Positions 1 through 518 of a stretch of 64,000 nucleotides of DNA are shown piece after piece. Each line of letters begins with the position of its first letter. Position 1 is the stretch's first letter. Origin of the DNA: Escherichia coli (lineage in GTDB: Bacteria > Pseudomonadota > Gammaproteobacteria > Enterobacterales > Enterobacteriaceae); NCBI RefSeq assembly GCF_050920415.1, contig NZ_CP169309.1; one strand, given 5' to 3'. Both the position numbers and the translations under genes were made by a program. The notes beneath the pieces were generated by a model. It saw nothing but the letters and a program-made list of their open reading frames with translations, was not told the DNA's origin and searched no databases.

Positions 1-272
1 GGCGTTATGAATCAGGCAGTAGTGTGAGAGGGGCAAGCCGGTTGAGTAAAGCCGGACATGTGTCGCTTCGCAGGGCGTTGTATATGCCTGCAATGGTAGC
101 CACCAGTAAGACTGAGTGGGGACGGATGTTCCGTGACCGTCTGACGGCTAATGGCAAGAAAGGAAAGGTGATTCTTGGCGCGATGATGCGCAAGCTGGCA
201 CAGGTGGCGTATGGAGTGCTGAAGTCAGGCGTACCGTTCGATGCGTCACGGCATAATCCGGTAGCTGCGTAA
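1..272 (+). mobile_element. C-terminal fragment of an IS110-family (IS621-like) transposase; reading frame is open to the window edge, so the element is truncated by the window
   Basis: ORF translation ...[25 protein letters not shown]...SRHNPVAA resembles IS110-family transposase C-termini; no in-frame stop between position 3 and 23; REP-type sequence lies immediately downstream, the known target type of IS621. Confidence 0.55.
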
Positions 273-389
273 AAATCGCGGAAGGGATGAAAAAAACAGC
301 GCCTGACGGCGCTGTGTCTGGCATGCCTGCAATCTGGGAAACCAGGGTAGAAAAAAACTTGCAGGCCATAACAGTATCTACATAATCTC

Positions 390-450
390 TGCAATCTATT
401 GAATTTGCATGTTTTTGTAGGCCGGATAAGGCGTTCACGCCGCATCCGGC
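390..450. repeat. REP element (417-450) preceded by an A/T-rich IHF-site-like core (390-409); half of a BIME/RIP-type unit
   Basis: GTAGGCCGGATAAGGCGTTCACGCCGCATCCGGC palindromic REP; core TGCAATCTATTGAATTTGCA is near-identical to the core at 40857-40877. Confidence 0.6.
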
Positions 451-518
451 ATGAACAAAGCGCACTATGTCAACAATCTGAAGCGGGCCAGCTGACCCGC
501 TCGTTTTTGTGTGTGCGA

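Follow-up and report, generated by a model that had tools for sequence, protein, structure and literature searches.

The window, a stretch of 64,000 nucleotides of Escherichia coli DNA, opens within the 3' end of a recombinase gene and continues through a non-coding insertion sequence end and the remainder of an interrupted repeat unit into pitA. For annotation purposes, nt 1–379 are the right part of IS621. The features of this region are given below with their positions in the window, and with the evidence for each in brackets.

1–272, plus strand: 3' end of the IS621 recombinase gene (open frame, Pfam and NCBIfam matches, alignment to the PDB IS621 protein)
273–379, plus strand: right non-coding end (RE) of IS621, 107 nt (letters, terminator scan, terminus motif search)
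359–364, within the RE: −35 box TTGCAG of the split circle-junction promoter
371–377, within the RE: left-donor sequence ACAGTAT
378–379, terminus of the RE: core CT
380–416, no strand assigned: rest of the interrupted BIME-1 (K-12 comparison, fold, L-motif search)
417–452, no strand assigned: intact Z1-type REP GTAGGCCGGATAAGGCGTTCACGCCGCATCCGGCAT, forming the right BIME-1 arm (36-nt hairpin, −20.9 kcal/mol; sub-threshold Rfam REP-type match)
453–510, plus strand: outer BIME-1 flank ...CAACAATCTG, then the right copy of a duplicated terminator hairpin, AAGCGGGCCAGCTGACCCGCTCG (481–503) (terminator scan, 482–501; alignments)
519–2018, minus strand: pitA, inorganic phosphate transporter (intact; convergent with uspB and the IS621 recombinase gene)

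The first two nucleotides complete codon 237 of the recombinase gene, and nt 3–269 represent codons 238–326, which form the C-terminal part of the Tnp domain. A TAA stop codon at 270–272 closes this frame of 89 codons (nt 3–272, plus strand). Because the frame is cut by the window's left edge, it is absent from the list of complete open reading frames. The window starts 709 nt into the gene (981 minus 272 nt); the gene looks like a fragment only because the window begins inside it, and is not truncated. The translation of nt 3–269 matches Pfam family PF02371 (Transposase_20, IS116/IS110/IS902) above the gathering score (E = 2.7e-07, 31.3 bits with a cutoff of 21.3). It also matches the NCBIfam model NF033542, "IS110 family RNA-guided transposase" (E = 4.5e-14), with 52.4 bits, below the full-length cutoff of 140 bits, as expected for a cut fragment. 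The fragment aligns end-to-end with residues 240–328 of PDB entry 8wt6, "IS621 transposase" (E = 3e-51), with 86 of the 89 residues identical; this count and the corresponding one for ISCro4 (80/89, see below) were made by hand from the printed alignments. Three substitutions distinguish it from the reference IS621 protein (M251L, A279M, and A285T), in a residue numbering taken from alignments of the full-length protein to IS621. The serine aligned to Ser241, a catalytic residue of the IS621 recombinase (PMC11208158), is encoded at nt 12–14.

The RE ends ...TTGCAGGCCATAACAGTATCT at nt 379, 107 nt past the stop codon, with the terminus ACAGTAT-CT. The terminal motif TTGCAGGCCATAACAGTATCT occurs once in the window, with 0 occurrences expected. 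A strong terminator-like hairpin is located inside the RE on the minus strand (315..296), where the terminator scan reports ACAGCGCCGTCAGGCGCTGT followed by TTTTTTT (seven T's); this hairpin would halt transcription entering the element from the pitA side. In addition, the TTGCAG at 359–364 is followed on the plus strand, after 16 nt, by CATAAT in the flank (381–386), forming a possible outward-facing hybrid promoter. Transcription from this candidate (359–386, plus strand) would cross the L linker and the REP in the direction of the terminator (482–510), antisense to the 3' region of pitA; at both other loci inspected the flank equivalent to CATAAT gives poorer −10 hexamers. A consensus promoter scan of nt 1–700 of the window returned no sites at threshold, the outward hybrid candidate included. 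As TTGCAG agrees with the consensus −35 box at 3 of 6 positions, the scan neither supports nor excludes the junction promoter or the hybrid promoter.

Past the element, the sequence reads ACATAATCTCTGCAATCTATTGAATTTGCATGTTTTT. The AC at 380–381 completes the CTAC of a split Y REP, and the L linker then follows, with the L motif GCAATCTATTGAATTTGCA at 391–409 and, on the minus strand at 392–404, a putative IHF site ATTCAATAGATTG that differs from WATCAANNNNTTR by one mismatch. This arrangement is that of a BIME-1 (RIP/RIB) unit, built from a single Y REP and a single Z1 REP in inverted orientation and separated by a long, conserved L linker with an IHF site (PMC3333891). The minus strand of the intact Z1 REP reads ATCCGGCCTAC, which is the IS621 target with one mismatch (position 4), and is unoccupied. 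The T-run of the hairpin at 481–503 lies on the plus strand, which makes this hairpin the likely terminator of uspB.

The corresponding site is uninterrupted in E. coli K-12 MG1655, where no IS is present and the sequence reads TTATCAGGCCT^ACATAATC (^ marks the point of insertion here and below). The empty target in K-12 reads TTATCAGGCCTACATAATC, in a uspB–pitA spacer with the sequence ...CGCTTATCAGGCCTACATAATCTC... (in a longer stretch, ...TTGCCTGATGCGCTACGCTTATCAGGCCTACATAATCTCTGCAATCTATTGAATTTGCATGTTTTTGTAGGCCGGATAAGGCG...). In the K-12 unit, a Y REP and a Z1 REP in inverse orientation enclose an L linker that contains an IHF-like site. When the IS is placed after ...CAGGCCT in this spacer, the two junctions of the occupied allele result, with CT flanking the element on either side. 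The right junction, ACAGTATCT^ACATAA, is contained in the window; the left junction, CAGGCCT^TGTATTAT, was read in five loci extracted from other genomes (L001, L002, L008, L009, and L010), among which L001 is the locus of strain MFDS1022581, L008 that of EPSSH018 and L009 that of RMDEC465 (L003 denotes the K-12 locus). As an ungapped comparison with the K-12 flank is broken by a 1-nt indel at approximately nt 473, gapped alignments were used.

The 11-mer that is interrupted relative to K-12 is ATCAGGCCTAC, an exact match to the published natural target of IS621. This same sequence has been described as the "naturally observed target sequence" of IS621, within REP elements (PMC11208160), and REP elements are known IS621 targets (PMC11208160; PMC1525189). 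In the Y-type REP, the conserved CTAC is divided by the insertion between CT and AC. The element has no long terminal inverted repeats, and the short CT core flanks it on both sides. Independent IS621 copies in the yacH–lpdA and yajD–tsx regions show the same type of junction, ATC(A/G)GGCCT^IS^AC. These copies occupy the equivalent position in other BIME-1 units, which accounts for the similarity of the flank past the IS in many hits.

Two further perfect ATCAGGCCTAC targets are present in the window, at 35045–35055 (minus strand) and 40838–40848 (plus strand), with 0.02 expected by chance; both are unoccupied. One of them belongs to a BIME that lies between livJ and panM, the other to an intact BIME-1, situated between livF and ugpB, that shares its Y-L-Z1 layout with the empty uspB–pitA site.

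The first-pass annotation of the window had described an open reading frame with an IS110-like C-terminus, followed within about 120 bp by half a RIP unit (an IHF-like core plus a REP), together spanning 1–455. The spacing, the extent and the composition of the half unit are all accurate, and the frame is IS110-like by PF02371, by NF033542, by its 86/89 identity to IS621 and by the 322/326 identity of its full-length relative (see below). The accompanying suggestion, that a REP-targeting, bridge RNA-guided element of the IS621 type had entered a REP/BIME that is uninterrupted in K-12, agrees with the IS-free K-12 site, with its intact REP-linker-REP order and the junction TTATCAGGCCT^ACATAATC, and with the identity of the junction to the published natural target ATCAGGCCTAC (PMC11208160). 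The window and K-12 REP junctions, when compared, differ by the IS and are not identical.

To place the fragment in a full element, the window was compared by megablast with 5,426 complete E. coli genomes. One genome, that of E. coli MFDS1022581 (NZ_CP169399.1), matches nt 1–520 at 99.8%, and differs from the window by 1 mismatch in 6,520 nt and by 3 mismatches in 50,000 nt (the first 50 kb of the window). At its uspB–pitA locus (L001) the complete element covers positions 5100–6379, a length of 1,280 bp with CT on both sides; it begins TGTATTATCC... and ends ...ACAGTATCT. The gene is a full 981-nt CDS between uspB and pitA, labeled in RefSeq as "IS110-like element IS621 family transposase". 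Its full-length product matches both PF01548 (DEDD RuvC-like; E = 1.8e-24) and PF02371, and is identical to the PDB IS621 protein at 322 of 326 residues (98.8%; E = 8.5e-218, 725 bits, vs. 639 bits for ISCro4). Identity is complete through residues 1–44 and 46–250, and the four changes are S45R, M251L, A279M, and A285T. The first-pass annotation had assumed that the left part of the element, with its bridge-RNA region, lies outside the window; in MFDS1022581 (3 mismatches in 50 kb) this part is present and intact. The possibility that the frame would turn out to encode a non-IS protein on extension was not borne out, as RefSeq annotates an IS621 family transposase next to pitA in this near-identical genome.

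As a DNA reference we used the copy of strain PM7, the protein of which has the PDB IS621 residues at all four positions that differ in L001. The element of L001 is 97.3–97.4% identical to this copy at the DNA level and 98.8% at the protein level, values above the roughly >95% DNA and >98% protein identity that we take to be the ISfinder convention for elements sharing one name. The copy is an isoform of IS621 (~97.4% DNA and 98.8% protein identity to the reference). Its left end (LE) is 192 nt long, one base more than the 191 nt of the reference-type copies of 1,279 bp. The RE (107 nt) and the reference LE (191 nt) together amount to 298 bp, in agreement with the RE-LE length given by Durrant et al. 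(PMC11208160). Within the target-binding loop, a small stem-loop of the isoform has gained 1 nt and shows a G-to-A change, and the first bridge-RNA base of the isoform is T, vs. A in the reference. In the small internal hairpin, the window-type isoform reads UUAGGUUUUCAACC and the reference IS621 UUGGGUUCUAACC; the G-to-A change turns a G:U pair into an A:U pair and one base is added to the loop, so that the small hairpin is kept and the guides are untouched. The differences of the isoform avoid the guides and the catalytic residues, and the isoform is assumed to be active. Judging from this one near-identical genome, the window's own copy is probably complete as well, with the DEDD domain and the left end.

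The left end of L001 contains the four guide strings of the IS621 bridge RNA: ATCGGGCCT at 5163 (left target guide), TGCGTAG at 5188 (right target guide including its extension), ACAGTATC at 5237 (left donor guide), and CAAG at 5276 (right donor guide). These strings are complementary or identical to the target ATC(A/G)GGCCTAC and the donor ACAGTATCTTG, and are invariant among four copies. The 177-nt left-end RNA of L001 folds at −64.2 kcal/mol, with z = −4.3 relative to shuffled controls. A permissive search of the whole L001 element against Rfam 15 gave no match to a bridge-RNA family; the assignment of the RNA therefore derives from sequence identity to the published IS621 and not from a curated model. 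The same Rfam release yielded sub-threshold REP-type matches in L001 (naRNA4, 38 bits vs. 59.5; ES036). A spurious L20-leader match falls on the terminator plus the REP.

A virtual RE-LE junction reads TTGCAG -17 nt- TATTAT, a predicted promoter with its −35 box in the RE and its −10 box in the LE. The split promoter has been described as active only in the excised circle (PMC11208160). At the left junction of the integrated element, which reads TGCGCT-17-TATTAT, no recognizable promoter is present. The uspB gene is co-oriented with the IS and directly upstream of it (L001 4659–5291), and its plus-strand terminator is now 1.28 kb away, beyond the IS. Read-through from uspB could thus transcribe the bridge RNA and the recombinase of the integrated copy.

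Taken together, these data make it almost certain that the window opens in a complete copy of IS621, inserted in the Y-type REP of a BIME-1 between uspB and pitA, likely through the published IS621 pathway. What has been observed directly is the identity of the sequence, the exact position of the junctions, the empty K-12 site and the unchanged guides in the left end of the near-identical genome. By analogy with published IS621 work, the insertion would have proceeded by way of a circle, under RNA guidance and with the chemistry described there. The excised double-stranded circle would join the right and left ends in the junction TAACAGTATCTTGTATTATCCC. The joined ends would rebuild a sigma-70 promoter (TTGCAG, 17 nt, TATTAT), from which a bridge RNA of approximately 177 nt would be transcribed from the left end. 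The target guides of this RNA, the right one ending in GUAG, would base-pair with ATCAGGCCTAC in the REP, position 4 being a G:T wobble, and the donor-binding loop (ACAGUAUC ... CAAG) would pair with the circle junction ACAGTAT-CT-TGTAT. A recombinase tetramer would then exchange strands at the CT core by means of Ser241 (nt 12–14) and the DEDD site. For IS621, the top strands are exchanged at CT through 5'-phosphoserine intermediates on S241, after which the Holliday junction is resolved (PMC11208160; PMC11208158). The expected left junction of the window's own copy would be ...CGCTTATCAGGCCT^TGTATTATCC....

The window by itself shows only the last 272 nt of the gene plus the right end, and recombination often truncates IS copies. 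It could accordingly contain a dead relic, that is, a solo right end or a 5'-truncated copy left by a rearrangement, with a pseudogene fragment at the window start. We consider this very improbable and reject it, as the frame is open to its normal stop codon and the right end is full length with a canonical terminus. Moreover, exactly this position is occupied by an intact element of 1,280 bp in the only genome with an almost perfect match (3 differences in 50 kb), and the five copies inspected at the site are all 1,278–1,280 bp long, each annotated with a 981-nt transposase CDS. Even less credible, to the point of being negligible, is that the C-terminus is merely similar to IS621 and belongs to another IS110-family element, for instance one of the ISCro4/IS622 type (ISCro4/IS622 being presumably the Citrobacter orthologue), the guide and target specificity of which could differ. 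The ISCro4 transposase is indeed the second-best PDB match (161 bits over the same 89 residues), and most E. coli copies are only 90–95% identical to the 379-nt stretch. However, the fragment is identical to IS621 at 86 of 89 residues and to ISCro4 at 80, the full-length protein scores 725 vs. 639 bits, and the terminus of the right end, the guides of the left end and the target all correspond to IS621; the orthologue was rejected on the basis of this higher identity and of the guides and target.

A match to the 379-nt IS portion occurs in 1,681 of the 5,426 complete E. coli genomes (31%), with a median of 8 places per carrier and a maximum of 27, whereas a junction-spanning query detects IS621 at the uspB–pitA site in 20 of the 5,426 (0.4%). 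Five occupied genomes that were compared contain three IS subtypes, which are 2.6–2.9% apart. The copies of PM7, Res13 and EPSSH018 are almost identical, and those of the window type and of RMDEC465 are 2.9% apart, with flanks that differ by only 0.2–0.9%. From these sequence comparisons, recurrent use of one REP or replacement of one copy by another is suggested over a single old insertion, but the comparisons are not decisive. The IS might alternatively be an old, vertically inherited resident that K-12 and most other lineages have lost through scarless excision, with no lineage-specific gain. IS110 elements do excise scarlessly (PMC11208160), so that an empty site is no proof of the ancestral state, and the divergence of the IS between occupied strains (2.6–2.9%) is similar to some of the flank divergences (2–3%). 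Nonetheless, we regard an old resident as unlikely: only 20 of 5,426 genomes are occupied, three IS621 subtypes share the site, and the 2.9% divergence of the IS vs. 0.2–0.9% in the flanks between the window type and RMDEC465 fits separate insertions or replacement better.

Two of the occupied loci show further peculiarities. The IS621 of EPSSH018 (L008) has 0 differences in 1,279 positions to that of Res13 and nearly the same left flank, and the L linker just to the right of the IS (L008 4380–4420) is a different variant, ACCAATAAACTGCAATACATTGAATTTATACGACTTTGTAG. This variant points to a local exchange, with either BIME-1 units or IS621 copies as the partners. In RMDEC465 (L009 1–1141), the annotation has a group II intron reverse transcriptase/maturase (ltrA) upstream of uspA, where the other genomes have dtpB.

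The BIME-1 unit that hosts the IS is itself variable among E. coli genomes, and presence/absence polymorphism of BIME-1 among isolates has been documented (PMC1187871). With a query consisting of the end of uspB, one hairpin and the end of pitA, many genomes match in a single piece of 406 bp, and K-12-type genomes match in two pieces spanning 579 bp. In a gapped alignment, O157:H7 has one bidirectional terminator hairpin, AAAAAAAGCGGGCCAGTAAACTGACCCGCTCGTTTTGG, between uspB and pitA and lacks the BIME-1. The 173 extra bases of K-12 relative to O157:H7 correspond to the BIME-1 unit (approximately 150 bp) and a second, direct copy of the 27-bp hairpin. The right copy is contained in the window (453–510); the left copy lies outside it and was located at 5022–5048 in L001 and in the K-12 locus (L003). 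At yajD–tsx, short single-piece alleles exist next to longer two-piece ones, and the short span, as judged from the match pieces with the short allele left unaligned, fits a single hairpin. We also compared the left and right flanks at 63 BIME-1 loci (50 after merging orthologues) of Escherichia and Pseudocitrobacter genomes. At 14 of the 50 loci, where approximately 0.5 would be expected, the left-right direct-repeat score lay above the 99th percentile of the cross-locus controls; stable hairpins make up 14 of the 16 repeated segments. A published description of BIME-1 makes no mention of a hairpin duplication at the borders of the unit (PMC3333891).

The flanking hairpin repeat looks like either a target-site duplication or a substrate for deletion. 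We tentatively consider, as a possibility that is more doubtful than not, that the locus is the product of a two-step nested insertion, the older step of which may carry the footprint of BIME-1 movement, with the hairpin as its target-site duplication. The alternative is that the repeats only mediate the deletion of BIME-1. If the repeat is a target-site duplication, BIME-1 integration would take place at terminator hairpins and involve the copying of the entire hairpin, and this would offer a concrete handle on how REP/BIME elements spread. The hairpin duplication around BIME-1 units is the only item at this locus that might repay further work.

The insertion matters little in itself, as IS621 is the founding, structurally solved bridge recombinase. 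The nature of the element and that of its target were already known, and nothing about them is new. The preference of IS621 for REPs has reportedly been known since 2003, from the work of Choi et al. on this element. The locus is nevertheless a clean natural illustration of this specificity, with an exact target, CT on both sides, an empty allele in K-12 and two more perfect targets that are unoccupied in 64 kb. For the neighboring genes, 1.28 kb of IS now separates the 3' ends of uspB and pitA, which may change read-through and termination at both.

Among known systems, IS1397 and ISKpn1 of the IS3 family likewise insert specifically into the REPs of E. coli BIMEs (PMC1525189). In contrast to the element described here, they encode an unrelated DDE transposase in two ORFs, have inverted repeats and lack a bridge RNA; no sequence similarity between them and the window element was found. 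The host site has the architecture of BIME-1/RIP, and what the window retains of this unit is confined to the L linker, the Z1 REP and, from the Y REP, its final 2 nt. ISCro4/IS622 (PDB 9T56; bioRxiv 10.1101/2025.05.14.653916), which has been used for genome engineering, belongs to the same family and shares the domain layout and a near-identical C-terminal tail; with 80 of 89 residues identical and 9 differences to the window fragment, it is the next-best solved protein after IS621. The closest likeness is to IS621 itself (PDB 8WT6; PMC11208160; PMC11208158): the full-length recombinase is 98.8% identical, and the terminus ACAGTAT-CT, the CT core, the REP target ATCAGGCCTAC and the four guides are held in common. 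The RE length fits the published RE-LE total, and the LE is one base longer in the isoform. Reference and isoform are approximately 2.6% apart in DNA and differ by 4 residues, in length (1,279 vs. 1,280 bp) and in the first bridge-RNA base (A vs. T).
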